Positions 16,471-58,023 of a stretch of 64,000 nucleotides of DNA are shown piece after piece. The notes under the pieces are model-generated. The model made no database searches, was not told the origin of the DNA, and was given only the letters and a program-made list of their open reading frames with translations. Made by a program: the position numbers and the translations under genes. Origin of the DNA: Candidatus Bathyarchaeia archaeon (GTDB lineage: Archaea > Thermoproteota > Bathyarchaeia > Bathyarchaeales > Bathycorpusculaceae); contig JBEKOM010000001.1 in assembly GCA_049521795.1 (NCBI GenBank), positions 1 to 64,000 on the forward strand, written 5' to 3'. Position 1 is the first letter of the stretch. Each line of letters starts with the position of its first letter.

Positions 16471-17160
16471 ATGAGTGATAAGTACACCGTTGCACGCATG
16501 ACAAAGGACAACGAACACTTTGAGGTCCTCGTTAAGCCCGAAAAGGCCTTAGACTACCGCATGGGGAAAACGACCTCGGTGACCGAGGTCTTGGCTGCCG
16601 AAACGATATTTTCAGACGCGAACAAGGGCACGAGGGCTTCAGAGGAAAACCTGCGCAAAGCGTTTGACACGACTGACGCGTTGAAAATAGCAGGAGTGAT
16701 ACTGACCAAGGGAACTTTGCAGCTTACGACAGAGCAGCGGAGAAAGATGATCGAGGACAAGAGGAAACAGATCGTTGACTTTATTGCGAGGCAGAGCGTT
16801 GACCCCAAGACAAACCTTCCGCACCCGCCTGCACGCATAGAAAACGCTATGGAACAGATTCGCTATTCGTTAGACCCATTCAAGCCTGTCGAAGAGCAGG
16901 CAAAGGAAATAATCAAGGCGTTGCGAGCTATTCTGCCACTTAAAATGGAGCAAATATCGCTGGGCGTCACGATTCCGGCAGCGTACTCAGTAAGAGCTTA
17001 CGGGTCTATCAAGGGCTTCGGAACGATCAAACACGAAGAATGGCGCCCAGACGGCTCATGGTACGGCGTTGTGGAGATGCCTGCAGGTACCTACGCCCCC
17101 TTCCTAGATAAACTCGGTGAAGTAACCAAAGGAAGCGGGGAAGCAAAAATAGTTCGTTAA
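16471..17160 (+). CDS. Ribosome assembly factor SBDS
   Basis: FEVLV, GTLQLTTEQRR, PHPPARIENAM; exosome-operon position. Confidence 0.95.
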   Translation: MSDKYTVARMTKDNEHFEVLVKPEKALDYRMGKTTSVTEVLAAETIFSDANKGTRASEENLRKAFDTTDALKIAGVILTKGTLQLTTEQRRKMIEDKRKQIVDFIARQSVDPKTNLPHPPARIENAMEQIRYSLDPFKPVEEQAKEIIKALRAILPLKMEQISLGVTIPAAYSVRAYGSIKGFGTIKHEEWRPDGSWYGVVEMPAGTYAPFLDKLGEVTKGSGEAKIVR

Positions 17161-33955: not shown

Positions 33956-34009
33956 GAAAGTGCGATACGTTTTTACGCTGTCCTGTAGTGCTTTTCAAGA
34001 GGGCATGTT

Positions 34010-35257
34010 TTGGTTCGATTGAGAGGATTTCAAAAACTAGTCCCAGTAGAAACCGCGTTACAAACGTTTCTCGGAACATTGCGGATCAAACCGAAAGAAA
34101 CGTCTAGTCCCTTGCACTCAGCTCTAAACCGTGTCCTAGCCGAACAAATAATCGCAAGGACAGATTTGCCGAGGACTAACAGGTCAGCGATGGATGGATA
34201 CGCTGTAAACGCCGACAGCACTGCCCAAGCAACACAGCGTAGACCAGAAACTCTCAAGATCGTCAACAAGAGCGTCATGAACGAAGGCGAAGCAAAGCAG
34301 GTTTGGACGGGCAACTCGGTTCCCATTGGCGCAAACGCTGTCGTGATGCTGGAAAATGTCAAACTGGATGGAGACAAGGTCGCCGTGTCTAGCCCTGTGC
34401 CCCAATGGGAAAACGTTTCAAAAAAGGGCGAAGACGTGCGAAAACGACAGGTCGTTGCCGAAGCAGGAACTCGTCTAAAGCCTCAACATCTTGGACTGAT
34501 AGCTGCCTTTGGCATCGCTGAAGTAAAGGTTTTCAGAAGGCCCAAGATCGCCATTTTAGCAACTGGAAACGAGCTTGCCGAGGTGGGTAGCAGACTGCGA
34601 AGAGAACAGGTGTTTGACACCAACAGAACTGCCCTAGTTGCATTATGCAGTGAGCTAGGAGCACAAACTCTGGACTTGGGCATTGCCAGAGATGACGTAG
34701 ACGAAATCTCGGAAAAGCTGAGGCTAGGCCTCCTGAAGGCTGACGGCGTGATTAGTTCTGGCGGAACCAGTGTCGGGGGCCTGGATCTCGTTCCGGAAAC
34801 TGTCAATCGAGTTGGAAAGCCAGGCGTCATCGTTCATGGCGTGGCAATGCGTCCAGGCATGCCAACGGCGTTGGCGGTCGTGAAAGACAAACCCATCATC
34901 GTACTCCCTGGCAACCCTGTTGCTGCTATGCTAGGCTTCGAGGTTTTTGGCAGACCGGTGCTGAGCATGATGCTTGGGCTTAAACGGGCAGAACTGAGAC
35001 CCATATTGAGGGCGAGAATGACTAGGAGAATCTCCACCACCTTGGGAAGGAAGAATTTAGTTCGTGTCCACGTTGTTCAGAAGGATGATGATTTCTTCGC
35101 TGAACCAATTAGCGCTCGAGGTTCAAGTCTGATTTCCACTATGACAAGAGCTAACGGTTATGTCGTCGTGCCAGAAAACGTGGAAGGCGTAGAAGAAGGA
35201 GACATTGTCTTGGTCAACATGTTTGACGATTTAGAGGCGAATAGAAATCATGTTTAG
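34010..35257 (+). CDS. moeA: Molybdopterin molybdotransferase MoeA
   Basis: SAMDGYAV, TGNEL, SGGTSVG, PGMP, LPGNP. Confidence 0.93.
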   Translation: MVRLRGFQKLVPVETALQTFLGTLRIKPKETSSPLHSALNRVLAEQIIARTDLPRTNRSAMDGYAVNADSTAQATQRRPETLKIVNKSVMNEGEAKQVWTGNSVPIGANAVVMLENVKLDGDKVAVSSPVPQWENVSKKGEDVRKRQVVAEAGTRLKPQHLGLIAAFGIAEVKVFRRPKIAILATGNELAEVGSRLRREQVFDTNRTALVALCSELGAQTLDLGIARDDVDEISEKLRLGLLKADGVISSGGTSVGGLDLVPETVNRVGKPGVIVHGVAMRPGMPTALAVVKDKPIIVLPGNPVAAMLGFEVFGRPVLSMMLGLKRAELRPILRARMTRRISTTLGRKNLVRVHVVQKDDDFFAEPISARGSSLISTMTRANGYVVVPENVEGVEEGDIVLVNMFDDLEANRNHV

Positions 35258-36491
35258 GAAACTGTTGACTTTTGAAGAGGCAAAAAAGGTCATTCTGGAA
35301 CGATTCAGCCCTAAGCCTTTGGGCGTTGAAGAGATTTCGCTTCTTGAGGCTAGCAGCCGTGTTCTGGCACAAGACGTGACGGCCGGCAGAGACATTCCAC
35401 CATTTGATCGGTCAACAGTCGATGGATACGCTGTCAGGGCTCAAGACACCTTTGGTGCCGAGGAAAACAGACCGATTACGCTGACGGCTCACGGAGCAGT
35501 GCGCGTTGGAGAAACTTCTAAGATAGTTGTCAGAAAGAAAGAAGCAGCAGAAATAGTCACAGGAGCACCTATCCCTGAAGGCGCAGATGCTGTTGTCATG
35601 GTTGAGCAGACTGAAAGAAAGGCTAACCGTATTCGTGTTTTCAGCGCAGTTGCAAGGCGTGAGAACATAATGAAGGCAGGACAGGACATCGGAAAAGGCG
35701 AGACTGTTCTCAAAACTGGCAAACTGCTCAGTTCGAGAGAAGTCGGTGTTCTAGCTGCCTTGGGCATAGCGAATGTCAAGGTTTACGTAGTTCCTCGAGT
35801 GGCAGTTTTTTCGACGGGAGCTGAGGTAACCGAACCAGGCAGAAGCCTGCCCGCTGGGAAGATCTACGACATCAACGCGTACACCTTGAGCGCAGCAGTG
35901 CTCGAAAGCGGAGCGAAGCCCATTTTTCTCGGCGTTTTCCCTGATGACCTCGTCAAACTTCAAAAAGCGCTGAGGCACGCCTTGGCCTCCGCCGACGTTG
36001 TAGTAACGTCTGGCGGTGTCTCCGTAGGTCCAAAGGACGTTATGCCAAAAGCCGTGGCCTCCCTCGGCCAACCTGGCACGATCATATCTGGAATAGCAAT
36101 GAAGCCTGGAAAACCCACGACGATAGGGTTGATCCGTAACAAACCAGTGTTTTCACTTCCCGGACATCCTACGTCTGCTTTGCTTGTTTTCCATCTGCTT
36201 GCCCGCCCGATAATACAGGCAATGGGAGGGAGAAAAGCAGAAGAAGACTCAGAAGTGAAGGCCCTAGCGAATGCAAGGATGTTCGCAGCAAAGGGAAGAA
36301 GAACATTTGTCATGGTAAGTGTGAACCGGAGTGAACTAAACAGGACTGTGGCCGAGCCTATTCTAGCAGGGGATTCTGGAGCGATAACGACCCTCACAAG
36401 AGCAGATGGTTATGTCGAGATACCTGAAAACGTGCAATTCGTGGATGTAGGCGAGGAAGTCACGGTGCGACTTTTTCGAAAAATGCCGTAA
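35250..36491 (+). CDS. moeA: Molybdopterin molybdotransferase MoeA, second paralog
   Basis: PPFDRSTVDGYAV, SGGVSVG, KPGKP, LPGHP. Confidence 0.93.
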   Translation: MFRKLLTFEEAKKVILERFSPKPLGVEEISLLEASSRVLAQDVTAGRDIPPFDRSTVDGYAVRAQDTFGAEENRPITLTAHGAVRVGETSKIVVRKKEAAEIVTGAPIPEGADAVVMVEQTERKANRIRVFSAVARRENIMKAGQDIGKGETVLKTGKLLSSREVGVLAALGIANVKVYVVPRVAVFSTGAEVTEPGRSLPAGKIYDINAYTLSAAVLESGAKPIFLGVFPDDLVKLQKALRHALASADVVVTSGGVSVGPKDVMPKAVASLGQPGTIISGIAMKPGKPTTIGLIRNKPVFSLPGHPTSALLVFHLLARPIIQAMGGRKAEEDSEVKALANARMFAAKGRRTFVMVSVNRSELNRTVAEPILAGDSGAITTLTRADGYVEIPENVQFVDVGEEVTVRLFRKMP

Positions 36492-36554
36492 GCGACAAAA
36501 AGAATCTGGGGAAACGAAAGTTAACGCGATAGTATAAAATGAGAAAAGATGTCC

Positions 36555-36911
36555 TTATTCTTCTAGAACTTTTCTCTTGTTTGCGGCGTATGCTGTGAAG
36601 ACCCATGTTAGAATGAGGTAGAAAATCATTCCGACGCCGAGAAAATAATTGGCTGTAAAAACACTGAAAATGACATAGGACGCGTAGGTTGTGCTAGCGA
36701 AGAACAAGATTATGATAAACCAGAATGACCAGGCTCTCTTCCTAAACATGCCATAGGCAGCGATCAGGCTTAGTATGCCGAGGATCCCAACGTGCGGCGG
36801 AAAGCCACTCAATGGCAAAAGAGCAACGAATGCTATTCCAACGATTGCGTAGAAAACAGATGTTGCAAACAATCCCCAGCTCTCAATCCTCAGCCTCGAC
36901 CCGAGTGACAT
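36555..36911 (-). CDS. Hypothetical 4-TM membrane protein
   Basis: Four hydrophobic helices. Confidence 0.7.
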   Translation of the reverse strand: MSLGSRLRIESWGLFATSVFYAIVGIAFVALLPLSGFPPHVGILGILSLIAAYGMFRKRAWSFWFIIILFFASTTYASYVIFSVFTANYFLGVGMIFYLILTWVFTAYAANKRKVLEE

Positions 36912-36953
36912 TTTCCATACGCCTTTAACCCTAATGCATTGACAGTAAGATTA

Positions 36954-36972
36954 ATAAATCTAATGTTCCACT
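36954..36972 (+). repeat. Boundary repeat copy 1 (att-like)
   Basis: 19/19 identical to 44455-44473, with further similarity downstream (cttaa...cacactt). Confidence 0.75.
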
Positions 36973-37116
36973 GTCCGCTTAAACTCACACTTTTCGATAC
37001 TTGTCTTTCTACATAAGAGCCTATACAATCACTGGAGTATCCATTGTAGTTCCTTCAGAAAAGAACATGTTAAGTCCACTAAAGGCTTCGTTTCATTTGC
37101 TTGATGAAGTTTTCCT

Positions 37117-37344
37117 TTATGCAAAACTCGTACGTATTCCTCTTTCAGCTTGACTGAAGCCTTTTGAACGTTTTTCAAACCATGGTTCATACCATGTTTT
37201 AGATACCCACTTATGTTTTTCACACGCAAGGATTTTTGTTTTAACATTAGTCTTATGTTCTGGGTTATGAAATGGACAGTTTTTATTTTCGGTGATTTTC
37301 AATTCACCTTTAAGCAATGCCTCTTTTATCCATCCTTTAGTCAT
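37117..37344 (-). CDS. Hypothetical protein
   Basis: Overlaps the HNH stop (ATGA coupling); CPFH...CEKH. Confidence 0.5.
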   Translation of the reverse strand: MTKGWIKEALLKGELKITENKNCPFHNPEHKTNVKTKILACEKHKWVSKTWYEPWFEKRSKGFSQAERGIRTSFA

Positions 37345-37754
37345 GTCTTCACCATTTTCTTTTCACTCATTTTTGAACCTCTCATTTGCTCTCTTTGTTG
37401 CCAAATCTCCCTTATTACATTACCCACCCTTTTGAATTCCTCATAGGTTAAAAAATCTGTCTTAGCCATATTACAGAGGGCGCAAGCCAAAACCGAATTC
37501 TCCAACGTATAACCTTGCTCGTTATCCTTACGGTCTATTTCCAACCTTCGTCCTCTCCTTCCAGAACCATAAAACTTCTTTTCCCAGATGCTAGTAAATT
37601 CCTTTTCCTCTATTCCGCAATAATGACACCTTGTTCCGTCCCTCTCGTAAAGTTGTTTTCGTAGTTTCTCTTTCTCTTTGACACCTCTTGGTGCTACATC
37701 TTTGAACTTTCTTGCGTGCTCTATAATCTTAATCCCCCTCTTCTGACTTATCAT
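37341..37754 (-). CDS. HNH endonuclease-like protein
   Basis: RDGTRCHYCG...LEIDRKDN..GY...NSVLACALCN.AK. Confidence 0.82.
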   Translation of the reverse strand: MISQKRGIKIIEHARKFKDVAPRGVKEKEKLRKQLYERDGTRCHYCGIEEKEFTSIWEKKFYGSGRRGRRLEIDRKDNEQGYTLENSVLACALCNMAKTDFLTYEEFKRVGNVIREIWQQREQMRGSKMSEKKMVKT

Positions 37755-37928
37755 ACTTCTTCCTCTTTGTCATTTTTGAACATCTAGTTTGTCCTTTGTA
37801 GTATGCAGATTTAAGATTTCTGTCTTGCCTATTCTTCACATTTCACAATAAGAAAGAACAAGATTTGCGATTCATAAAATCTAATTCCTTCTCCTTGACT
37901 AATCAAATACAAAGAAAGGTAACCATCT

Positions 37929-38399
37929 ATGGGCAATTGTGCAAAATGCGGAAAGCAACTGAGCTGGATAGGTCAAAATGCAAGTTGTCAATTCATGCCA
38001 CGTTTTGTAAAGCAACATCCAGAGTACAAAGGTAAGAAATTCTGTAGAGAATGCATGGTTAAGGAGACTGCCGAAAGACAATTTAGAGAAGCACAAGACG
38101 GAAAAACCGCATTCATACAAGACGACGCCCAAACAGTTTTGCAGGATAGACAAAAAAGATTGACAATCTACACAGATGTAGCGGCAAAATTCGGCTATAC
38201 CTTTAAGCAAATCGAAGATGCCGCTTATAATAGAAGTGCTTATTCTATACCAGTTCAAATTCATCCTGCGACAATGATTTTCGAGAAAGCCATAGCCACT
38301 AATAAGGAAACCAATTTCCTCAATTGTCAATACTGCAAAACTCGCTATGATACAAACCAATACTTCAAATGTCCTCAATGCGGTTCGCCAGCAGCTTAG
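37929..38399 (+). CDS. Hypothetical protein with N- and C-terminal Zn fingers
   Basis: CAKC...CREC and CQYC...CPQCG. Confidence 0.75.
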   Translation: MGNCAKCGKQLSWIGQNASCQFMPRFVKQHPEYKGKKFCRECMVKETAERQFREAQDGKTAFIQDDAQTVLQDRQKRLTIYTDVAAKFGYTFKQIEDAAYNRSAYSIPVQIHPATMIFEKAIATNKETNFLNCQYCKTRYDTNQYFKCPQCGSPAA

Positions 38400-38412
38400 A
38401 GAAGGCAAAAGG

Positions 38413-38647
38413 GATGATGAGAATGGTGTGGGTAAAAGGTCACGCAAGAATAAGCGGAAAGTGTAACCATTGCAGGAAGGAAGTCAATAAAGGTGATACT
38501 GCTTTTGTTGAAATTCATGGCATATTTCCAAGGCCTTCAACAACTACAGCGTTATGCGAGGACTGCTTTAATCAATTGCATCCCAACGAAAAAACCGTTT
38601 CTGAAACGGGTTTGGCACTAAGAAGATTCACGTTTAGAACAAGCTAG
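38413..38647 (+). CDS. Small Zn-finger protein, possibly frameshifted near its 3' end
   Basis: CNHC...LCEDC. A protein-like continuation KLEDSSDQIELP...LLKV* in another frame ends at about 38727. Confidence 0.55.
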
Positions 38648-38739
38648 AAGATTCATCAGACCAGATAGAACTACCAAATACACTTTCCCAAGAACTGGAA
38701 GAGATTAGTAAACTCTTGAAGGTGTGAAAACTCGAGAAG

Positions 38740-39060
38740 ATGAATGAAAAAATGAAAGACGAAACGAAGTTGGATATTGCTTTACTCTTAATTGTTCTTG
38801 CGACTCTGTTTCTTGTACCTCTGGCAGCCACTTGCATACTATATTATTCGTCAATCTTTAGACCGTCAACATTCACGGCAATCTATATTTGCACCTTCAT
38901 ATTTTGGTTCATTGCCTTTTTCGCTATTGTTGGATGGTATGACGAACAAGAACAGAATCGACAGATATTCGGAAGAATCAGAAAAGACATTGAAGAACGT
39001 AGAGAGCTAAGAGAGAGAATGCTGGAAAAACTACGCAAAGAACAAGATGAAGAAACTTAA
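38740..39060 (+). CDS. Hypothetical 2-TM membrane protein
   Basis: Two TM helices and a charged coiled tail. Confidence 0.7.
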   Translation: MNEKMKDETKLDIALLLIVLATLFLVPLAATCILYYSSIFRPSTFTAIYICTFIFWFIAFFAIVGWYDEQEQNRQIFGRIRKDIEERRELRERMLEKLRKEQDEET

Positions 39061-39146
39061 ACCCTTTCCTCTTTTGTTTCATCGACTTTTGTTTCACTCG
39101 TTCCTGAATCCCCAGTTTATCTTCTGTTGCTGTGAAGATTTAAGAT

Positions 39147-39296
39147 TTAGAGATTGATTTTCCCTATTTCTGGACAACTGTGCTTTTTCATTCTGTAACA
39201 AACTACCGTTCCATCGGTTCTTATGTGGAACAATGAGGAGTTGCAGTTTCGGCATCGCAGATATTTCTGTTTTCCATCATGCTTCAAGTTTTCCAT
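39147..39296 (-). CDS. 49-aa Zn-finger microprotein (below ORF-track cutoff)
   Basis: MENLKHDGKQKYLRCRNCNSSLFHIRTDGTVVCYRMKKHSCPEIGKINL*, directly downstream of repeat A copy 39308-39346. Confidence 0.6.
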   Translation of the reverse strand: MENLKHDGKQKYLRCRNCNSSLFHIRTDGTVVCYRMKKHSCPEIGKINL

Positions 39297-39375
39297 GTCT
39301 CTCGGCCAGTTTGTCTTCTGTTACCGTGCCGATTTAAGATTTCTGTGTTACAGCTTGACTAGAGCCTTTTCACCC

Positions 39376-39699
39376 TTAATAATCATAATAGGGTGCTCCT
39401 ATTCGCTTTGCTTCCTTTTTGAAATTTTCACCCTCTTCGCCCCAATCAGGTAATCCTCTTCTGTAAAGTTCTGCATGAACCATCTCATGTTTCAGAGTGG
39501 TTTCAAAGTTAGTTTCTTTGAGATTTAGACTAGCATAGTTTTCCAGCATATGTATTGTGAGGTTTTCTGGGTCTGTTCGTCCTTGTGCAGATTTCTCATC
39601 AAACAGAATAGTGTATGAGGGAAGTTTGCCCCCATAATACTTCTTGTTCAAAATAAAGAAAATTCTCTGTGCTTCTTGTCTTTTTGTATCATCAGTCAT
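39376..39699 (-). CDS. SprT-like zinc metalloprotease domain protein
   Basis: F..LN.KYYGGKLP...TLKHEMVH...F. The distal His of the usual HG motif is not evident (DWG). Confidence 0.72.
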   Translation of the reverse strand: MTDDTKRQEAQRIFFILNKKYYGGKLPSYTILFDEKSAQGRTDPENLTIHMLENYASLNLKETNFETTLKHEMVHAELYRRGLPDWGEEGENFKKEAKRIGAPYYDY

Positions 39700-39775
39700 T
39701 TTGAAATCTCTACTTTTGTTCTTCTGTTGCTGTGCAGATTAAAGATTTCTGTTAATTGACGTCTGAGTAGAGTCT

Positions 39776-40411
39776 TTATGATGTCGGTGTAAACATGCCG
39801 ACCACGTCTTCAGTGAAAGTCGTTGTATTTGTTTGGTTTGGTTGGACAGAAAACAGTTGTGCCTCGAACGTCAAATCGCCTAAATTGAAACCTATCGCAG
39901 TAACGTCAGGCGATATCCAATTAGGTTTTAGAAAGACCGTCAATTCCACGAGCAACTTATCTTCTATTGAGTTTATCACATTCCTTGAAATGAAGTATTG
40001 ATGTATGGCTCCTCCTAAGTAAGATGGTGAGTGTTCCATGGAGTTTAGATATTTCATGTCAAGCTCCAAGTTTACTTCACTAGTGTTGGCGAGATTGAGA
40101 GTATTGACGTTAATTGTTAACATGCCGTCATAAGGAGTTACCACTTTCAAATCCACCGTGACAAGTCCATCTAGGCTAGCAAAAGTATCATTACGCACGC
40201 AATACATAGAGTTGAGCGTTGAGGTCGCATTAATCGAGAATATGAAAGGTTGAAAGTAGGTGAGAGAGTTTATGGAGTTCTGCAAGTTGTAACTTTGCGA
40301 TGCATAATATATGTTGAAACCCGTGCTGATGAGCAGAGCAATCAAAGTAAGCATAGAGAGCCATTTTCTTCCTTTTCGAATCTTGATTCCATTCGCTTCT
40401 ATATATGCCAT
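39776..40411 (-). CDS. Membrane-anchored extracellular hypothetical protein
   Basis: Single N-terminal TM and a beta-rich domain with N-x-S/T sequons. Confidence 0.7.
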   Translation of the reverse strand: MAYIEANGIKIRKGRKWLSMLTLIALLISTGFNIYYASQSYNLQNSINSLTYFQPFIFSINATSTLNSMYCVRNDTFASLDGLVTVDLKVVTPYDGMLTINVNTLNLANTSEVNLELDMKYLNSMEHSPSYLGGAIHQYFISRNVINSIEDKLLVELTVFLKPNWISPDVTAIGFNLGDLTFEAQLFSVQPNQTNTTTFTEDVVGMFTPTS

Positions 40412-40466
40412 ATCCGCTAATGACAAACCCTAGAGAAATAAGATTTCTGTCTTTGTTGCGTTTCGT

Positions 40467-41006
40467 TTAGGTTGAACTAGGTTGCTGTGGGTTAGTAGGC
40501 GGTGGTGGTCGATTGGTTTCTACCGTTCTTTTCCTATGGCGTAGAGCGACCGCCAAAGCCATAATCACGATTAGAAGTATCACGACAACACCGATGATTA
40601 TCAACAATTGCCCTATGTCAAAGCCAAAGACCGAAGATAAGCCAACGTCATATGTCAAGTACACCGTTTTCCCAGTAAACAATGAGAAAGTGTTGCCGAA
40701 ATGTAATGTGTACGCTCCAGATGCTTGTGCGGTGAAATCAAATGTCTTACCTTGTGTGACTCTTCCATAGTCAAGGATTTTAGTACCTTGAGGGTCTGTC
40801 ACCCAGAAATCAATATCATTGCCACCACCACTTATAGACAATGACCCCGTGAACTTCTGTCCACCATCCAGATTAAACGTCACCATTTCCTCGCTCAATG
40901 CACCTACTTGAACAGTTTCAACACTAGAAGCCTTTACGAACGAAAAAGCAACAACTGATAATAGAATTGCCGTTATCACTAGAGCCAAAAAGAATTTGTT
41001 TTTCAA
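40467..41006 (-). CDS. emp24/GOLD-like domain type I membrane protein
   Basis: Signal peptide; GGGNDIDFWVTDPQG...FDFTA..SGAYTLHFGNTFS..K.V; TM; basic plus Pro-rich tail. Confidence 0.75.
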   Translation of the reverse strand: MKNKFFLALVITAILLSVVAFSFVKASSVETVQVGALSEEMVTFNLDGGQKFTGSLSISGGGNDIDFWVTDPQGTKILDYGRVTQGKTFDFTAQASGAYTLHFGNTFSLFTGKTVYLTYDVGLSSVFGFDIGQLLIIIGVVVILLIVIMALAVALRHRKRTVETNRPPPPTNPQQPSST

Positions 41007-41100
41007 TTGACTGCCTCAATTCAAGACTGACTTTTGACTCTAATAAAACTATGGGTTAATCGTCATTTCTGAAAAAGAATCAAGATAATGAACAGAATAT

Positions 41101-41859
41101 TCAGTTGGCAAGTGGTGGTGGAGGTGGAGTCGGCAATTGTTTCTTCTTCGACCTATTTCTCCTAATAACCAAGCCTGTTGTTACAGTTAATGCGCATACG
41201 ACAACTACAATACCTATGGCGACATAGGTCCAAGGAAATTGTGGTTGGACTCCTTTTATCGTTATCCATACTGGGTCCTCAACTCCACCAATTATGCCAC
41301 CGTCATTTGAAAAATATGGAGCATCCCCACCGCCAATAGGTCCGCTTCCTTCTTCGGATGCATCTTTGCAGTGGAAAGAACCAACAAGGTCGATGACATA
41401 ATGGAGCTTCACGGTCTCATCCTGAGCGATATTTTGATAAGGTCTTGACGCATTTACCGTATATGAGAATGATTGAGAACTGTTGAGAACTAAAGTATTT
41501 GACTGCACCCGCACTAAAGTCATCATCTGTTTGGAAAGGTCTTTAGAAAGAATTCTCTCTGTACCGAGTTCTACATAGACATCGTACACGCTAAGACTGA
41601 GATTCTCCACATTTGGATTTATGTTTTTTATTCCTATTGTGAAGTCTATTTCATGGTTTTCCTTTAGAAGCCAAATGTCATTATCCCATGAAAAACGAAT
41701 ATCTACATCAAAAAGCCTAGGTCCTATCAACCAACTGTAATGAAAAGTCGTTACCTTGGACCCACCGCTACAATATACCGTAAAGACAAGATTGCCAAAA
41801 AGCAAGCAGAAAAGAGTCAGCAGGGCGATTAGAGTGACCGCTTTCATCAGTCTCACCAT
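41101..41859 (-). CDS. Secreted type I membrane protein with Pro-rich tail
   Basis: Signal peptide, C-terminal TM, RRNRSKKK...PPPPP. Start at ATG 41859 follows repeat A. Confidence 0.7.
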   Translation of the reverse strand: MVRLMKAVTLIALLTLFCLLFGNLVFTVYCSGGSKVTTFHYSWLIGPRLFDVDIRFSWDNDIWLLKENHEIDFTIGIKNINPNVENLSLSVYDVYVELGTERILSKDLSKQMMTLVRVQSNTLVLNSSQSFSYTVNASRPYQNIAQDETVKLHYVIDLVGSFHCKDASEEGSGPIGGGDAPYFSNDGGIIGGVEDPVWITIKGVQPQFPWTYVAIGIVVVVCALTVTTGLVIRRNRSKKKQLPTPPPPPLAN

Positions 41860-41902
41860 GGGTGTTCTGATGCATCTGTGGATTAAAGATTTCTGTCCTT
41901 GA

Positions 41903-42477
41903 GGTTTTGCGGAAAAGTTATAGCCGAACCGAAATAACACCATCTTCACAGGTGTTAGGAATGGTTGACATAACAGAGATTTCTGCCCTTGTAGCTGCTG
42001 CAGGTGTGCTAGTTGGTGTTGCTTACTATGTTCTAGACATGAGGAATCAGACAAAAATGAGACAGATGGATTTTGTCCTGAGACTGCCTTCTTCCTTCAT
42101 AGGAAGAGATGTGTTTGAAACAATTGCAACTGTCATGAAAACAGAATTTAAGACCTTTGATGACTATGAAGAGAAATGTGGCATTGAAGCCCGTCAAGTA
42201 GCTGGCTTGGGTGAAGACCTTGGGCTTCTAGTCAAAAAAAAGGTCGTAGAATTTAACCTAGTCTATGAAAGGTATGATGTGAGGTCTGTATATGAAAAGT
42301 TGAAACCTTGGATAGAAGAGTCTAGAAGAAGAACGAACAATCCAAGAAATTTTGAATATTTTGAATATCTCTACAATGAAGAAAAGAAGAGAGAACAGAA
42401 ACTCAAGAAATCAAAAGCGTAAACTATCAGTCTTTTTGAACCAGTTTTTGGTTTTGCGGAAAAGTTATAGCTGAACC
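41903..42477 (+). repeat. Repeat family B (2 copies, 27/28 identical), BRE/TATA-like
   Basis: ggttttgcggaaaagttatagcYgaacc at 41903-41930 and 42450-42477, each about 30 nt upstream of a plus-strand gene. Confidence 0.85.
41961..42422 (+). CDS. DUF4760-like protein (N-terminal TM)
   Basis: N-terminal TM; E.LGLLVKK...YEKLKPWI...R...FE.FEYL. Confidence 0.65.
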   Translation: MVDITEISALVAAAGVLVGVAYYVLDMRNQTKMRQMDFVLRLPSSFIGRDVFETIATVMKTEFKTFDDYEEKCGIEARQVAGLGEDLGLLVKKKVVEFNLVYERYDVRSVYEKLKPWIEESRRRTNNPRNFEYFEYLYNEEKKREQKLKKSKA

Positions 42478-42506
42478 AATGTAACTCTGTGGGTTGGTGA
42501 GTTGGG

Positions 42507-43058
42507 TTGCTTGAAGGTAAACTTGTGAACCTGCGAGCTTGGGAAAGGGAAGATATTGATTTCTTAGCTGAACATCGCAATGACATTAATTGTATGGGTG
42601 AGTACTGGCCCATTATTAGGCAGTATTCGAAGTCAGATTACCAGAAAGTGTTTGATAATCCTTCAAACTTGCAAATCTTACTTGAGGCTAAGACATTTGT
42701 CATTCAGAAGAAAGATGGGACTAGGATAGGAGAGATTCATCATTATCTAGATATAACCCATCATTGGATGGAGCTTGGTTATTGGTTAGTGCCGAGTGAA
42801 AGGAAAAAAGGATATGCAACCGAAGCAGTCCAGTTAATAGTTGACTACCCGTTTCTTTCAAAGGAACTTGTGCGTGTTCAGGCTATTACTGATGTCAGAA
42901 ATTTCGCTTCTCAGAGGGTTCTTGAAAAAGCAGGGTTCACGAAAGAAGGGATAGTCCGCAAGAGTGCTTTCACCCGAGGAGAATGGAAAGACGGGTGCCT
43001 ATTCAGTATTCTCAGAGAAGAATGGAAAGAACCAAAAATACTAACAAAAACCATATGA
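42507..43058 (+). CDS. GNAT N-acetyltransferase, RimJ/RimL family
   Basis: LEGKLVNLR, ELGYW, RKKGYATEA, NFASQRVLEKAGF.EG. Confidence 0.9.
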   Translation: MLEGKLVNLRAWEREDIDFLAEHRNDINCMGEYWPIIRQYSKSDYQKVFDNPSNLQILLEAKTFVIQKKDGTRIGEIHHYLDITHHWMELGYWLVPSERKKGYATEAVQLIVDYPFLSKELVRVQAITDVRNFASQRVLEKAGFTKEGIVRKSAFTRGEWKDGCLFSILREEWKEPKILTKTI

Positions 43059-43146
43059 AGATGAATTGGCTGGCGTTTTTCTGTTCTACGCTTTCGACAT
43101 AACTCTCTTCTTTTCTGATGTATTAGAAGTTCTAAAAAGAAAAGTG

Positions 43147-44133
43147 CTAAGATTCTAGAAATCTCTTGATAGTTTCCATTGGACTCTCTTCGGTCATCAG
43201 TGCCAAGCTCTCTGAGGAATATTGTCCCCGAGACTGCCCAAGTTCTCTCTTGATGATTTTTGCCAAGGCCATTGCAATAGTGTCCACATCCAATTGATTG
43301 GCCTTGCCATTGACTTTCTCTAGAGGAATTGAATTTACAATTTGTTGCCAAGCCTCTCGAAGTTCATCTCTAGACAGGATATATGTCAAAACATCCTTGT
43401 TCACAGTCTTGAACATCAGAATCCTTAGAATGTCTCGATTTACATTCAAATGGCATCCAGTGTCGAAGAATATCTTTCGCATTATATGAGGATTGAAGAC
43501 AGGAACTCCAGCAATCTTGCAGATTCGTTCTAACATCTTGGCGATACCTCTTTTGGTTGTTGGCAATTCAAGACCTGACTTCTGAAGCTGTGTTGCAAGT
43601 CCCAGGGTCATTTCCGAAATGTAGACTCGGCCAGGAACATTCTCTTTTTCTGATTCTATCAAGAAAGTTCCTTCAGTCATTCTTGGAATAACTTTCTTCA
43701 CCAAGTCACCAACTCTGCAAGGACAGTCTCTCATTAGACCCAGCACCGTCTTAGTCTGCAGATCTCCTAGCCTGAAGCAATTCTGTAGATTTTCCAAGGT
43801 CGGAATATTGACATCAATCTTCATCTGGGTATCTGGAATTTTGTTTTTCAATCGAAGTTCCAAATCATAGTAACTAAAGAATGAACTTGCTCCGAAGACA
43901 TAATTGCTTGCTGTGGACTTGCTAAGTTTCTTTTTGTCCTGCAAGAATTTCCAGAATAAGACAATTTCTGTGGTGAACCTCTTTCCTTCCTTTCTTCTTA
44001 GTTCCAATATTTCTTCAGAGTCCATTCCAAGGAACTCTTTAAGATACAAGAATGCCTTAGCATGGTGAAGTTTGGTTGATTCCGAAATCAGACTTGCTAA
44101 CCATTCTTGTTCCTTGTCCAACATAGGATCCAA
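43147..44133 (-). CDS. Tyrosine recombinase/integrase, divergent
   Basis: N-terminal core-binding domain (LSKSTASNYV...SSFF); catalytic R (CRVGD), K (SEKE), HIMR and Y (VLTY). The usual LMGH box reads LMFK. Confidence 0.8.
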   Translation of the reverse strand: MDPMLDKEQEWLASLISESTKLHHAKAFLYLKEFLGMDSEEILELRRKEGKRFTTEIVLFWKFLQDKKKLSKSTASNYVFGASSFFSYYDLELRLKNKIPDTQMKIDVNIPTLENLQNCFRLGDLQTKTVLGLMRDCPCRVGDLVKKVIPRMTEGTFLIESEKENVPGRVYISEMTLGLATQLQKSGLELPTTKRGIAKMLERICKIAGVPVFNPHIMRKIFFDTGCHLNVNRDILRILMFKTVNKDVLTYILSRDELREAWQQIVNSIPLEKVNGKANQLDVDTIAMALAKIIKRELGQSRGQYSSESLALMTEESPMETIKRFLES

Positions 44134-44454
44134 TTCTCGTGCCTCCCTTTTCGTTTTTATGAAGGCAGAATTCAGAAACGAGAACAGTCAGTTCCTACTT
44201 GGATCCAAATATCCATGGTACGTTGAAACCGAGGAGGGGTAGGTTCCTCAGCCCACCAAATAAGACTTCTCAACCCACTAAAATCTAAGAGGCGGGATGG
44301 AAGTTGAGTCCTGGCAAATGGGGACATCACCAGCCGACCCGCCCACTCTCCCTTCTTCTTTCTGCATCAACGTATTCTGGTCACTTGGCATTAACATATG
44401 CATCCCGCAGTCAAACCAGAACGCTTTAGCTGGCATCGTCCGACTATGGCACCG

Positions 44455-44473
44455 ATAAATCTAATGTTCCACT
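44455..44473 (+). repeat. Boundary repeat copy 2 (att-like)
   Basis: Identical to 36954-36972. Confidence 0.75.
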
Positions 44474-44593
44474 CCACACTTAACTCCACACTTCACCGGA
44501 TGGAACTTCTAGGAAAGCAAGAGCGCGCGTTACGCTTATTAGTGAGCAATTTTGAGAGATCGTTCACAGTGCACTTTACGGGGCTAAACTGCA

Positions 44594-45325
44594 ATGGGAA
44601 CAGCTAAGGAAGAAAACTTTGACGAAGTCAATTACGAGCATCAAATCAAAGTCACCAGGAATGGCCCATACATTGTTTCTGGCAAACTCCCCATATCCGA
44701 ACAAATAATCATCGTCAACAAGGAAGGGATTCCAGTCGAATGGCGTTCGGGCAAGAAATATCCTTTACAGGAAAAATGCGGCCTTTGCCGATGCGGAGAA
44801 TCAAAGAACAAACCTTTCTGCGATGGAACACACACAAAAATCGGTTTTGACGGTACCGAAGGGGCCAGCAGTGAACCCTACCTGAAACAGGCAAAAACTA
44901 TACAGGGCCCAACGCTCAAGCTAACCGACGTTGAAGATCTTTGCGCCTCTGCGCGTTTCTGTCATAGAGCAGGCGAAATTTGGAACCTTGTTCCAAAATC
45001 AGACGACTTGGATTCTAAACGTGCGGCAATCGAAGAAGCAGCAGACTGCCCCTCAGGTCGCCTTGTAGTTTGGGACAAGAAAACAGGGAAGGCGATTGAA
45101 CCAAAATTGGAAAAATCAATCGGGCTAATCGAAGACCCTCAGCTGGAGTGCAGCGGTCCGATCTGGGTGCGAGGAAGCATCCCGATCAGGTCTGCAGATG
45201 GAAGAATCTATGAAGTTCGCAATCGCGTTACTCTCTGTCGCTGCGGCAAGTCCTCCATCAAGCCATTTTGCGACAGCAGCCACTTTCCCGAGCATCTCTA
45301 CGAAGAAATGATGTCTTCTAAGTAA
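44594..45325 (+). CDS. CDGSH iron-sulfur domain protein (two CDGSH + divergent 4Fe-4S/3Fe-4S domain)
   Basis: LCRCGESKNKPFCDGTH, CASARFC...CPSG, LCRCGKS..KPFCDSSH. Confidence 0.92.
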   Translation: MGTAKEENFDEVNYEHQIKVTRNGPYIVSGKLPISEQIIIVNKEGIPVEWRSGKKYPLQEKCGLCRCGESKNKPFCDGTHTKIGFDGTEGASSEPYLKQAKTIQGPTLKLTDVEDLCASARFCHRAGEIWNLVPKSDDLDSKRAAIEEAADCPSGRLVVWDKKTGKAIEPKLEKSIGLIEDPQLECSGPIWVRGSIPIRSADGRIYEVRNRVTLCRCGKSSIKPFCDSSHFPEHLYEEMMSSK

Positions 45326-45570
45326 AGTCAACATGACCTTAATATTTTGCCGCGCGTGCGCTGAGAAAAACGGGAGGCCACCTACTGCCATGCTTTTCGC
45401 ACTGAGCATTTGAGCTAATGTTAGTAAGCTTCAACATCGATTACATTAGTCCAAGCTGCTTCATCATTCCGACTACGTCGTAGAAAAGACGTTCCTCTGC
45501 GATTTCGCTGCTTTTCCAAGTGGCAACGGTGCAGAATTCAAGGGGAAGCGCGCTAAAAAATGAGAAAAAT

Positions 45571-45909
45571 CTACGGATTCTTGGTGAGTTCTGCTAGTTG
45601 TTTTTTATTGAGCCCAACTCCAGGCGTGGCATCAAGTCTCTTGTGCACCTTTCCTTTTTTGAAAAGAAGCACCGTGGGGTAGTACTCTATCGCGTATAGC
45701 TCACATAAATCTGGTCTGTCATCAACTATGACGCTCATGCACTCTTGCGGATTGCCTCTTGCGTACTCTTCAAATACTGGTAGGAACCTTTGGGAAAATG
45801 GGCACCAACTAGCGTAGAAAAGGACGAAAGCCCTTTCCTTGTTTTCTATTTCTCCTTCCGGACTGCTGCTTCTGGAGACTTCTACTTTACGCCTTTCAGC
45901 TTTGCTCAT
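45571..45909 (-). CDS. Thioredoxin-fold protein with monothiol CxxS
   Basis: FYASWCPFS...YPT...F.KG. Confidence 0.85.
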   Translation of the reverse strand: MSKAERRKVEVSRSSSPEGEIENKERAFVLFYASWCPFSQRFLPVFEEYARGNPQECMSVIVDDRPDLCELYAIEYYPTVLLFKKGKVHKRLDATPGVGLNKKQLAELTKNP

Positions 45910-46000
45910 TCATCCATCGGCCTCTTCTTCAACACATCTTAACCCTGTATGTCAGCAACCATTAGAGTTAACCTTAACGCATTTTTTATCATGGTTACAA

Positions 46001-46015
46001 ATAAATCTAATGTTC
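46001..46015 (+). repeat. Boundary repeat copy 3 (15-bp core)
   Basis: ataaatctaatgttc. Confidence 0.6.
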
Positions 46016-47297
46016 GAACAATACTGTTAAGGCAAGTTGCCCGGTTCTTTGAGGCCCCAATCCGTTTTGGATTGTCAACTTTTTTTGACTTAACATTGAT
46101 TAATTCAGTTGTTTTCTGAGAGTTTGACACCTATTTCCGTCAAGTTTTCTTGACGAAAAGAGTTTTCTTCACGTTGTTGCACAAGTTAATTGGAGACATC
46201 TTATGTCTACTAATGATGAAGAACCATATTCGACGATTTTTGCATCTTTAAAACATCCCATCCGCCGTAGGATTCTGAGGATGTTGTCGAAGCAGCCTAT
46301 GGGTTTCATGGAGATGATTGAGGTTCTAGGGGTGTCCAATTCCTTTCTGACTTATCATCTTGAGAATCTCGGTGAATTGCTCAGCAAGACGGAAGACGGC
46401 AAGTACAAGCTCTCTAGTTTCGGGGAAGCTGCGAATGCAACAATGACCAAGGTAGAAGACATCCCAACGACTATACCCCACCATTCCACGAGAATAAAGA
46501 CACGTGGGTTTAGAGGCGGAAGTGCTGCCACGGCATTAGGAATAATCTGCATTTTGTTGATTGCTGGTTTGGGCGGAACACTTGCATACTATGCGATGGC
46601 AATTAACAACAAACAAAGTGAACTAAACTCTGCAAACAACACAATCAGCCAGCTAAACACTACCATAGCGAGCCAGAAAGAAGCTATTACCCAGTTGAAT
46701 ACCACGGTCACGAACCTTCAAGACCAAAACGGAAACCTGCAAACATGGCTAGATGGAAACCTGACTCTGACTAATAAGACTCAAATGTGGCTCAGTGGGA
46801 ATGTGACTGCCTACAATCAGCTTCAAGATGAAGTTAGTAACATCCACATCGGGGGCACAAAGAACTCTACGGTTTTGGTGAACAACGAAACATACCCACA
46901 GTATGAAGGACCGACGATAACGGAAAACAACGAAACAATCCAAATCATTCAGCTGGGCTGGGGTTTTTCTGTGCCATCTGCAGGATATATTTCTGTGATG
47001 TTTTCTTCAAACGGTACCTCAACCCCTGTTGAAGTCTCGTACTATCAGAACAGCACCATTAACTGGCTTGGATTCAACCCGATCCTTCAGTTTGATCTGG
47101 GTTCAAGTGGAATAATAGTTTTTCCCGTTTCGGCCTCTACAACCTACCTAATATCTCTTCATAATCCTCTCGGTGAAACTTCTGCTTTCACAATAACAAT
47201 AACGTACCACTACTAGAACCCATTTCTCTTTCTTTAGTCAATCAAGAAATACGAAGAATTTGTGTTGGGTAACTTACCTTAACAGTATCTGTTCGAA
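46013..47297. repeat. About 30-bp imperfect inverted repeats flanking the wHTH gene
   Basis: 46013-46042 ttcgaacaatactgttaaggcaagttgccc versus 47267-47297 gggtaacttaccttaacagtatctgttcgaa: reverse complements with 2 mismatches and 1 gap. Confidence 0.8.
46203..47216 (+). CDS. Membrane-anchored ArsR-type wHTH regulator with coiled coil and extracellular domain
   Basis: IFASLKHPIRRRILRML...LTYHL..L, one TM, N/Q-rich heptads, beta-rich C-terminus. Confidence 0.82.
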   Translation: MSTNDEEPYSTIFASLKHPIRRRILRMLSKQPMGFMEMIEVLGVSNSFLTYHLENLGELLSKTEDGKYKLSSFGEAANATMTKVEDIPTTIPHHSTRIKTRGFRGGSAATALGIICILLIAGLGGTLAYYAMAINNKQSELNSANNTISQLNTTIASQKEAITQLNTTVTNLQDQNGNLQTWLDGNLTLTNKTQMWLSGNVTAYNQLQDEVSNIHIGGTKNSTVLVNNETYPQYEGPTITENNETIQIIQLGWGFSVPSAGYISVMFSSNGTSTPVEVSYYQNSTINWLGFNPILQFDLGSSGIIVFPVSASTTYLISLHNPLGETSAFTITITYHY

Positions 47298-47350
47298 TTT
47301 CCTTTCTTAGCGCGCGCTGTTTGTTAAGGTTTGACCTGCGCTCTTCAACT

Positions 47351-50686: not shown

Positions 50687-50794
50687 CCGCGCGCGCTAGT
50701 TTTTGCCTGAGCTCGTAAGAGTGGGCTTCTCGAACATTTAAGGGCAGGTCGAATACTATCATTAAGGCCAGAGGATTTGACCATGCAGTTCCGG

Positions 50795-57650: not shown

Positions 57651-58023
57651 AGAACACCACAGATCTTTATTAAACATTCCTGAGACTCACACGCTCGCGC
57701 TCGTCAAACGAGCTTTGACAATTGAAAAAGTGGCTCTTACAATTAATAGACATCAATGGTACTCGCTCAAAGAAGTCTGGAAGATAGGCGTGTCGGACTA
57801 GGAAAACAGCCCACGTAGCTCCGCATCCAACCTGAACAACCTCACCGTTTTCAACAACGCTTGCAAAGTGTATATACAAAACGTATATACAAAATGTATA
57901 TGCTTTCATTTTCACTTTTTTTGCGAATTTGGAGGATAAGCCCGCGCGGTGTACGTGGAAAATTTATGGGTGACGCATGAACGTCTGGAGGCTGCTTGAA
58001 AATGCTTTTCAAACAGTGCTACT

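Follow-up and report, generated by a model that had tools for sequence, protein, structure and literature searches.

We examined a 64,000-nucleotide (nt) stretch of the genome of a Candidatus Bathyarchaeia archaeon (contig JBEKOM010000001.1, positions 1 to 64,000; hereafter the window), and focused on the block between positions 36954 and 44473, with all positions given in the numbering of the whole window. This block is probably a 7.5-kb integrated mobile element of a known kind, marked by an unusual integrase clade and by a promoter-like integration hotspot as its target; we put the probability of this reading at roughly 0.78. A first-pass annotation had described the block as an integron-like array of cassettes. 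We found instead a single unit that is bounded by left and right attachment sites (attL and attR) and is absent as a whole from relatives.

The anatomy described in that annotation, about 12 short and unrelated genes in an AT-rich block with a recombinase at one end and a 19-bp direct repeat at the bounds, was borne out by the guanine-plus-cytosine (GC) profile, the gene annotation and an all-against-all BLASTP comparison, which agree. The GC content of the block is 0.370–0.414 (1-kb windows, 37001–44000), compared with 0.464–0.521 in the left flank (34001–37000), 0.46–0.47 in the right flank (44001–46000) and a mean of 0.486 for the 2.44-Mb genome. This fall in GC is limited to the DNA between the two 19-bp repeats. 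Thirteen open reading frames (ORFs) were accepted as genes, namely 12 short genes and one tyrosine recombinase, and BLASTP returned 0 non-self matches among their products at E ≤ 0.01. The 19-bp core sits within a unit of ~130 nt, delimited from aligned copies and referred to here as unit U. The parts of the integrated structure are as follows:

36954..36972, plus strand: attL core, 19 bp, an exact copy of attR
44455..44473, plus strand: attR core, 19 bp, an exact copy of attL
36973..44454, no strand assigned: element body, 7482 bp, GC about 0.39
36923-36953: left arm of attL, the host promoter-like arm of unit U, upstream of a gene for a membrane protein of 118 amino acids (aa) at 36555-36911 on the minus strand
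44474-44529: right arm of attR, ending in GCGCGCG, in the upstream region of the CDGSH gene at 44594-45325
44134..44454, no strand assigned: integrase upstream region and element-side att arm, from comparison with the related genome G001

Similarity around the 19-mer extends to 39 nt at 82%, and a search of the window with up to three mismatches returned 3 matches where 0.03 were expected. We compared the flanking genes in five genomes of the same genus (congeners). Homology of the left flank stops at 36972–36985 in four of them (G001, G002, G005 and G009) and homology of the right flank resumes at 44508–44520 in G001 and G009, while the DNA between the flanks is different in every congener compared. 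The element-side arm of attR is 84% identical to a stretch beside a third att copy in G001, and this sharing with a second occupied site is as expected of an arm derived from the element. Together, the exact repeats at the edges, the break in synteny and the shared arm form the standard signature of site-specific integration of the whole of 36973–44454. In G115, a genome of another genus, one exact core lies 118 nt ahead of the CDGSH gene, whose protein is 90% identical, and the arm beside this core matches the attR arm of the window. We take this single core as a putative unoccupied target, judging by its sequence, although its left neighbor differs from that of the window.

The unique parts of the element were 100% identical in contigs from three peat metagenome runs (habitat as given in the run records). 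Contigs of two runs, which come from different studies, show the integrated form over both junctions, one contig extending across attL and another across attR. We also considered an RNA gene as the integration target. ARAGORN found 0 tRNA genes in the window and Rfam gave 0 matches there at gathering scores; a permissive scan of 44100–44600 returned only chance-level matches, with a best E of 0.14. On these null results a tRNA or known RNA was rejected as the target, but an unrecognized RNA gene could still lie in 44196–44307.

The recombinase lies at the right end of the element, its gene 322 nt from attR:

43147..44133, minus strand: divergent tyrosine integrase, 328 aa, recognized by profile, residues and predicted fold

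The protein has no Pfam family of its own at E ≤ 0.01. Scanning 1.84 billion cluster representatives recovered a family of 94 proteins at E ≤ 0.001, the best of them 65% identical. We aligned the window protein with 30 full-length members chosen from these 94 (n = 31) and found R140, D143, K163, R219, K242 and Y251 to be invariant, with H216 present in at least 90%. The catalytic set of the window integrase comprises R140, K163, H216, R219, K242 and Y251. The fifth catalytic position is usually His or Trp in other tyrosine recombinase families, whereas the clade of the window protein has an invariant lysine there (K242, 31/31). The alignment profile matches archaeal XerA structures at E 3.2e-20 and 2.1e-18. 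The Pfam integrase family PF00589 is matched by 24 of the 31 aligned members, not including the window protein, and the match of the latter to NCBIfam XerA_Arch is weak (23 bits vs a cut-off of 220).

An AlphaFold model of the integrase (predicted local distance difference test score, pLDDT, 89.8) has the fold of a SAM-like N domain followed by a catalytic domain. All Foldseek matches in ranks 1–10 are tyrosine recombinases, with XerA (5hxy) at the top (E 4.4e-7); the top matches in the Protein Data Bank (PDB) are XerA, Brujita Int, IntI4, Tn1549 Int, lambda Int, Cre and SSV1 Int. Judged on the profile of its family, its conserved residues and its modeled fold, the 328-aa protein is an intact, very divergent tyrosine recombinase, and its description in the first-pass annotation as an intact-looking one holds for its length, its catalytic residues and its predicted fold. 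Like archaeal XerA and the phage-type recombinases (PDB 4a8e, 5hxy; lambda Int; SSV1 Int), it has a two-domain fold and the R..K..HxxR..Y set, but it is only 12–17% identical to the solved tyrosine recombinase structures. Unlike that of XerA, its gene is found at the end of an insertion and not at a chromosome dimer-resolution locus.

Relatives of this integrase are sparse. The best other match in 61 related genomes is 28–31% identical, and searches of IMG/VR, a phage collection and, by pattern scan, the GTDB species genomes yielded none. Close relatives with genomic context come from three metagenome loci only. At the locus of the closest relative (metagenome contig L015), an integrase 66% identical to ours lies immediately inside a 29-nt direct repeat, with copies at 2860–2888 and 8860–8888 next to TtuA and kinase genes. 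Two different elements are arranged in tandem at this one repeat, the first with a PF00589-type integrase and the second with an integrase of the window clade. The cargo is unrelated to that of our block, and unit U and the two intergenic repeats of the block described below (A and B) are all absent. The idea that homologs of the recombinase would be consistently flanked by the same repeats thus fails at the closest relative.

An upstream sequence of ~112 nt (44196–44307) ahead of the integrase gene was 89–91% identical to C3:119318-119431 of the same genome and to G002:C4:23400-23512. Both copies are intergenic and lie downstream of a ThiF/MoeB-like gene. Shorter copies were seen at at least four more contig sites, and Rfam gave no match. 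It may represent a dispersed repeat or encode a small RNA.

We then consider the target. On the minus strand, the core is an A/T-rich, TATA-like box situated ~40–60 nt upstream of where the gene for the 118-aa membrane protein starts, and unit U as a whole appears promoter-like. A further copy in the window lies outside the element:

45983..46019, plus strand: third, partial copy of unit U, with 16/16 core bases and the TTAACC..GCATT arm, upstream of a thioredoxin gene

The same genome has a U-like copy at C4:114115, 5.5 kb from another integrase fragment. The core is rare, being found in 15 of the 121 genomes of the family, in 1–3 copies each. G150 has a split PF00589 integrase whose end is 88 nt from the core, beside low-GC DNA, and in G001 an integrase fragment adjoins the third core copy. 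The latter is a 70-aa ORF with no Pfam match, which we accepted as an integrase fragment because it has a tblastx match (E 1.5e-18) to an ORF of the window's own genome that matches PF00589. There are 3 core copies in G001 and 4 in G009, and the intervening segments encode different cargo, namely a CMD-family gene, a glyoxalase, GNATs, a cupin, a CAAX protease, an SDR and secreted proteins. Since other integrases adjoin the core and congeners hold three to four copies with other cargo, the core is an integration hotspot, used by other recombinases in related genomes. A survey of archaeal elements documents their tandem integration at a single site (PMC6563490).

We propose that the divergent integrase would recombine the attP site of the element with the 19-bp core inside unit U, the target lying between the gene for the small membrane protein and that for the CDGSH iron-sulfur protein. 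Recombination would duplicate the core as attL and attR, leaving a TATA-like core before the host gene on each side, and the element may still be mobile at present. Repeats A and B would not be recombination sites of the element; its cargo genes would merely use promoters common to the lineage. The first-pass suggestion that a promoter doubles as the recombination site is accordingly retained in part, for the promoter-like 19-bp core of unit U, and dropped for repeats A and B.

Cargo genes number seven on the minus strand and five on the plus strand:

37117..37344, minus strand: 75-aa protein of no family (ORF list, Pfam, PHROGs, NCBIfam)
37341..37754, minus strand: HNH endonuclease, 137 aa (PHROG 1035, E 2.9e-15; weak Pfam HNH match)
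37929..38399, plus strand: Zn-ribbon protein, 156 aa (weak zinc-ribbon Pfam matches only)
38369..38647, plus strand: Cys-rich ORF, 92 aa, with an uncertain start (ORF list, Pfam scan)
38740..39060, plus strand: membrane protein, 106 aa (ORF list, Pfam scan)
39147..39296, minus strand: Zn-ribbon ORF, 49 aa (ORF list, Pfam scan)
39376..39699, minus strand: SprT-like metalloprotease, 107 aa (Pfam SprT-like, E 1.9e-5, just under the cut-off; weak NCBIfam SprT match)
39776..40426, minus strand: membrane protein, 216 aa, listed start TTG
40467..41006, minus strand: GOLD/emp24-domain membrane protein, 179 aa (Pfam EMP24_GP25L, E 3.8e-13)
41101..41859, minus strand: membrane protein, 252 aa from the second ATG (ORF list)
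41952..42422, plus strand: DUF4760 protein (Pfam, E 1.5e-12)
42507..43058, plus strand: GNAT acetyltransferase, RimJ/RimL-like (Pfam Acetyltransf_3, E 1.7e-22)

A homolog of the GOLD/emp24 protein (69% identical) is found in G116, beside copies of repeat A and an integrase. The DUF4760 protein has eight more matching places in its own genome, and the GNAT has paralogs of ~54% identity on 7 other contigs of that genome. Directly 3' of the GNAT stop is a T-rich stretch (43070–43101) that is 97–100% identical to sequences behind GNAT genes in G101, G150 and G098 and is strongly multi-copy in the peat contigs; it may be a conserved terminator or the 3' end of GNAT units. PHROGs named only the HNH and acetyltransferase families among the 13 proteins, with no virion hallmark, although the small membrane proteins could be unrecognized virion proteins. 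We classed the element as cryptic because no replication or capsid gene was recognized.

Many of these genes are preceded by one of two intergenic repeats:

37770..37826, minus strand: repeat A, copy 1, with a TATA module at 37804-37826 and a leader module at 37770-37791, 53 nt ahead of the HNH start
39112..39155, minus strand: repeat A copy without an ORF of at least 60 aa behind it, antisense to 38740-39060, with a weaker copy at 39133-39155
39306..39349, minus strand: repeat A copy, 34 nt ahead of the 49-aa ORF
39712..39755, minus strand: repeat A copy, 37 nt ahead of the SprT-like gene
40431..40453, minus strand: repeat A copy with 2 mismatches in 16, 8 nt ahead of the listed TTG start of the 216-aa gene
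41877..41938, no strand assigned: back-to-back pair, with A (41877-41899) facing minus-strand genes and B (41903-41938) facing plus-strand genes
42438..42485, plus strand: repeat B, copy 2, long form, 35 nt ahead of the GNAT gene

Seven genes start 8–53 nt behind a repeat core, as measured from these copies, which upholds the first-pass count of seven genes immediately behind a repeat. Repeat A precedes the HNH, 49-aa Zn-ribbon, SprT-like, 216-aa and 252-aa membrane-protein genes, and repeat B precedes the DUF4760 and GNAT genes. At up to three mismatches repeat A has 6 matches in the window, 5 of them in the block, where 1.03 are expected, and 0 of 100 shuffles reach 6. The two exact 22-mers of repeat B in the window are both in the block (0 expected). 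Repeat A has two parts, a TATA-like module and a leader ending in a start codon; its copy at 39112–39155 may act as an orphan promoter or an antisense one. Spacing is fixed between the repeats and the downstream start, but not between the repeats and the upstream stop. This near-fixed spacing agrees with their earlier description as 5' modules resembling a B recognition element (BRE) and TATA box. It was also claimed that they are not hairpins of the integron attC type, and folding of seven 71-nt single-stranded stretches over A, B and U supports this: z ranged from +0.32 to -1.50, and 19–120 of 200 shuffles folded as well. As a separate observation, the divergent A and B pair of ~50 nt (41877–41924 in the window; 6481–6524 at locus L028 of G150) is nearly identical in two genera.

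Both repeats extend well beyond the block. The window's own genome has 15 B cores at up to two mismatches, 2 of them in the block, and 8 A cores at up to one mismatch. Across the family, repeat B occurs in 57 of the 121 genomes and 40 of the 70 genera (306 copies by hand sum, up to 38 per genome), with 7 matches for a reversed-pattern control, and repeat A occurs in 23 of the 121 genomes. The conserved part of B is 40 nt, from a consensus of 41 copies in 8 genomes, and its letters are nearly all kept from genus to genus. Behind 24 of 30 B copies (window plus ten loci) an ORF of at least 50 aa starts 16–66 nt downstream, mostly at 36 nt. These ORFs encode GNAT, DUF4760, DinB, methyltransferase, HAD, HD, DUF4037, DUF1059 and 2'-5' RNA ligase-like proteins. 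Most B copies are single and dispersed over the chromosomes; one G116 contig, for instance, has them at ~15 separate places. In the peat contigs, short pieces of the repeats have summed depths of hundreds to thousands, compared with 2–26 for unique parts of the element, which fits motifs common to many loci and organisms. To judge by these features, A and B are probably lineage-wide promoter and leader modules.

Their link to the integrase family is less simple. Among the 30 best integrase-family loci, B lies within 1.5 kb of the integrase at 6 and is absent from this range at 24; A is present at 2. When the window is excluded, B is present at 5 of 29 loci against ~0.24 expected, a hand estimate from per-genome B counts that takes no account of relatedness or of the tendency of both features to cluster in flexible regions. 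We found no att-like direct repeats including B around five integrase loci (G098, G002, G116, G134 and G027), only chance-size 12–13-mers, in a search for repeats of at least 12 nt between the integrase-proximal zone and the rest of the locus, where the other element ends may fall outside the stretches compared. Of the possibility that the repeats are common promoters unlinked to this recombinase family, the first half stands, as they are common genome- and family-wide, and the second does not, as B lies near the integrase family more often than chance predicts.

Several observations weigh against the reading of the block as an integrated element. Among the genomes examined, none has both original flanks around one core. 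We also searched for an excised circle or an empty-site joint (36972 to 44474) and saw none among the 15 joints listed of 66; this search used contigs of 4 peat runs, not reads, and contigs drop rare variants. Replication, partition and capsid genes were not recognized among the 13 block proteins by Pfam, PHROGs or NCBIfam, and the element may be a decayed remnant or non-autonomous. The GNAT and DUF4760 cargo is host-like. Four of the 8 A copies in the genome fall within the block, that is in 0.3% of the genome, which exceeds the expectation for a neutral host promoter. The promoter roles of A, B and U, on which the proposed view of target and cargo draws, are read from sequence alone. Finally, the U-unit arrays in G001 and G009, with one to four genes between copies, would also be explained by capture of small U-bearing circles.

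Repeat B also heads arrays of single genes in other genomes. Locus L027 (G101:C7:55000-74000) is a one-directional array with 11 B cores at up to two mismatches (15 at up to three) over 15 kb, and locus L028 (G150:C1:349000-360000) is a one-directional array with 6 (7 at up to three) over 8 kb. The array genes, each behind a 40-nt B, include GNATs, DinB, a methyltransferase, HAD and others, with a CMD-family gene within the G101 array. Units of the G101 array are found on different contigs in its congener G134. One unit of 520 nt (a 104-aa gene plus B), set between unrelated flanks, is 98% identical in G101 and G134; a GNAT unit is shared at 92% identity and the other 15 shared stretches at 66–86%. 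A broad view of these arrays is that promoter-bearing units (U, the 40-nt B and perhaps A) are the currency of gene flux, and that integrases of this clade dock self-expressed single-gene cassettes at promoter-type sites, much as integrons do but with promoters in place of attC hairpins. The window would then mark one end of a spectrum, where a complete element with A- and B-led genes has docked in U. We regard this view as unlikely. Homologous recombination between near-identical 40-nt modules, or shared genomic islands, would explain the arrays, and the nearness of B to the integrase family, without a dedicated capture system.

A related alternative is that unit U is a reusable docking site that stacks small U-bearing circles, so that the block is the latest and largest insert of a slowly growing array. 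G001 has two U copies around a CMD gene within 650 bp, followed by U-bounded glyoxalase and GNAT segments, and in G009 the 4 U copies bound segments of 1.3–3 kb (cupin, CAAX protease, secreted proteins, SDR) with no integrase. The internal copies have both U-type arms, and integrases of at least three kinds adjoin the core. Tandem site-specific integration followed by decay would look alike, however, and is documented for archaeal elements (PMC6563490); two of the G009 copies belong to a 1.3-kb tandem duplication. The arrays are restricted to two genomes, and the 15 joints listed include no circular intermediate. We consider stacking of this sort quite unlikely as the origin of the block.

The block could also be an ordinary strain-specific island that the adjacent recombinase did not mobilize. 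The recombinase gene would then be a stray or a passenger in decay, and the 19-bp repeat two copies of a host promoter motif. The U-like copies elsewhere (window 46001 and C4:114115), the host-like GNAT and DUF4760 cargo and the failure of Pfam and PHROGs scans of the block proteins to find replication genes all fit such an island. Against this, 19 of 19 bases are identical exactly at both edges of the GC drop and synteny breaks at the core; the integrase is full length with all catalytic residues, and the element-side arm is common to the second occupied site in G001. An unmobilized island is very improbable in our judgment.

The integron-like capture platform first suggested, in which each gene is a cassette, promoter A or B is its recombination site and the neighboring recombinase shuffles the cassettes, is very unlikely to be right: 7 of the 12 genes do lie directly behind A or B, the cargo is made of small, unrelated, cassette-like genes, B leads arrays of ~8–16 units in G150 and G101 whose G101 units sit on other contigs in G134 (98% identity for one of them vs 66–92% for other stretches), and B is near more integrase-family loci than expected, but the block is bounded by unit U and synteny breaks there and not at A or B, its genes occupy both strands, A, B and U fold no better than shuffles, the integrase profile is nearest XerA with no match to integron-integrase-specific features, most integrase loci lack B with L015 lacking every repeat, and B copies are mostly single and scattered, without att-like repeats including B at the five loci searched.

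A comparison with integrons leads to the same view. A report on integrons, archaeal ones included (PMC9668308), supplies three defining features: an IntI with an extra domain, attC sites whose single strands fold, and cassettes that share one orientation and run from an attI beside intI. Our block likewise has a tyrosine recombinase beside short, unrelated genes separated by conserved repeats. It differs from integrons in that its repeats are 5' promoter modules without attC hairpins, its genes lie on both strands and one att duplication surrounds the whole. The match of the integrase profile to IntI4 (2a3v) covers 47 positions only (E 0.0063), and the K163–H216 spacing of 53 residues was judged too short for the extra IntI domain. 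A profile search and an NCBIfam scan of the window integrase gave no evidence of an IntI-specific domain. The integrase gene is convergent with the nearest B-led genes, and there is no co-oriented cassette array.

The closest counterparts are the cryptic integrated elements (CIE) and other integrated mobile elements of archaea, as surveyed in Thaumarchaeota (PMC6563490). In that survey the elements range from 2.6 to 98 kb and 15 of 68 have an intergenic target. An integrase as the sole hallmark, the size range, direct repeats, an intergenic target and tandem arrays are all shared with our block. The block differs from the elements covered there in its Bathyarchaeia host, in a core placed in a promoter-like unit and not in a tRNA gene, in an integrase clade that PF00589 misses and in Lys in place of His/Trp.

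The nearest likeness for A and B is found among putative mobile promoters (PMC3575422), which are also near-identical upstream sequences before non-homologous genes and common to several genera. That survey applied a 50-nt criterion, found no case of sharing at the level of domains and contains no description of archaeal arrays. Repeat B, at 40 nt, is below the 50-nt criterion, and it heads tandem single-gene units. Our literature search found no description of the element, the B module or promoter-led cassettes in Bathyarchaeia; the supplements of PMC10848311, which could list a related provirus, were outside this search.

Two other dispersed sequences were noticed along the way. The octamer GCGCGCGC occurs in 417 copies in the 2.44-Mb genome vs ~30 expected from base composition, with examples in the window at 44523–44529, 47310–47317 and 50688–50696. 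On contigs C1–C3, 32 of 174 copies lie inside ORFs of at least 100 aa, which cover 84% of the bases, and the motif looks like a lineage-specific intergenic punctuation mark. Synteny and unit boundaries often coincide with it. As a candidate cassette boundary it was rejected, for it is over-represented genome-wide, mostly between genes, and is not specific to cassettes. The second is a repeat of ~100 nt that ends in GCGCGCGC (L032 12817–12914, which is C3:56816-56913 of the window's own genome), with a partial copy in the window at 57883–57948. There are ~20 copies of 74–90% identity in the genome and more in G002. One copy is at a breakpoint of a 4-kb variable island on C3 that carries two DUF4760 genes, a GNAT and a secreted protein led by repeat A; the other breakpoint (L032 ~16874–16952) abuts a putative tRNA gene, judged by eye. 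G002 is without the island at that site, and its GNAT unit, 93% identical, is on another contig.

The block thus adds a cleanly delimited integrated element to the Bathyarchaeia, a group whose mobile elements are little known. The features worth recording are the divergent integrase clade (94 cluster representatives), the promoter-like target core and the reuse of this core by other integrases. Should the B-led units move as units, archaea would have a new route of gene capture; otherwise B would be an unusually rigid regulon promoter. The B module is useful for the annotation of transcription starts and for expression tools in this uncultured lineage.

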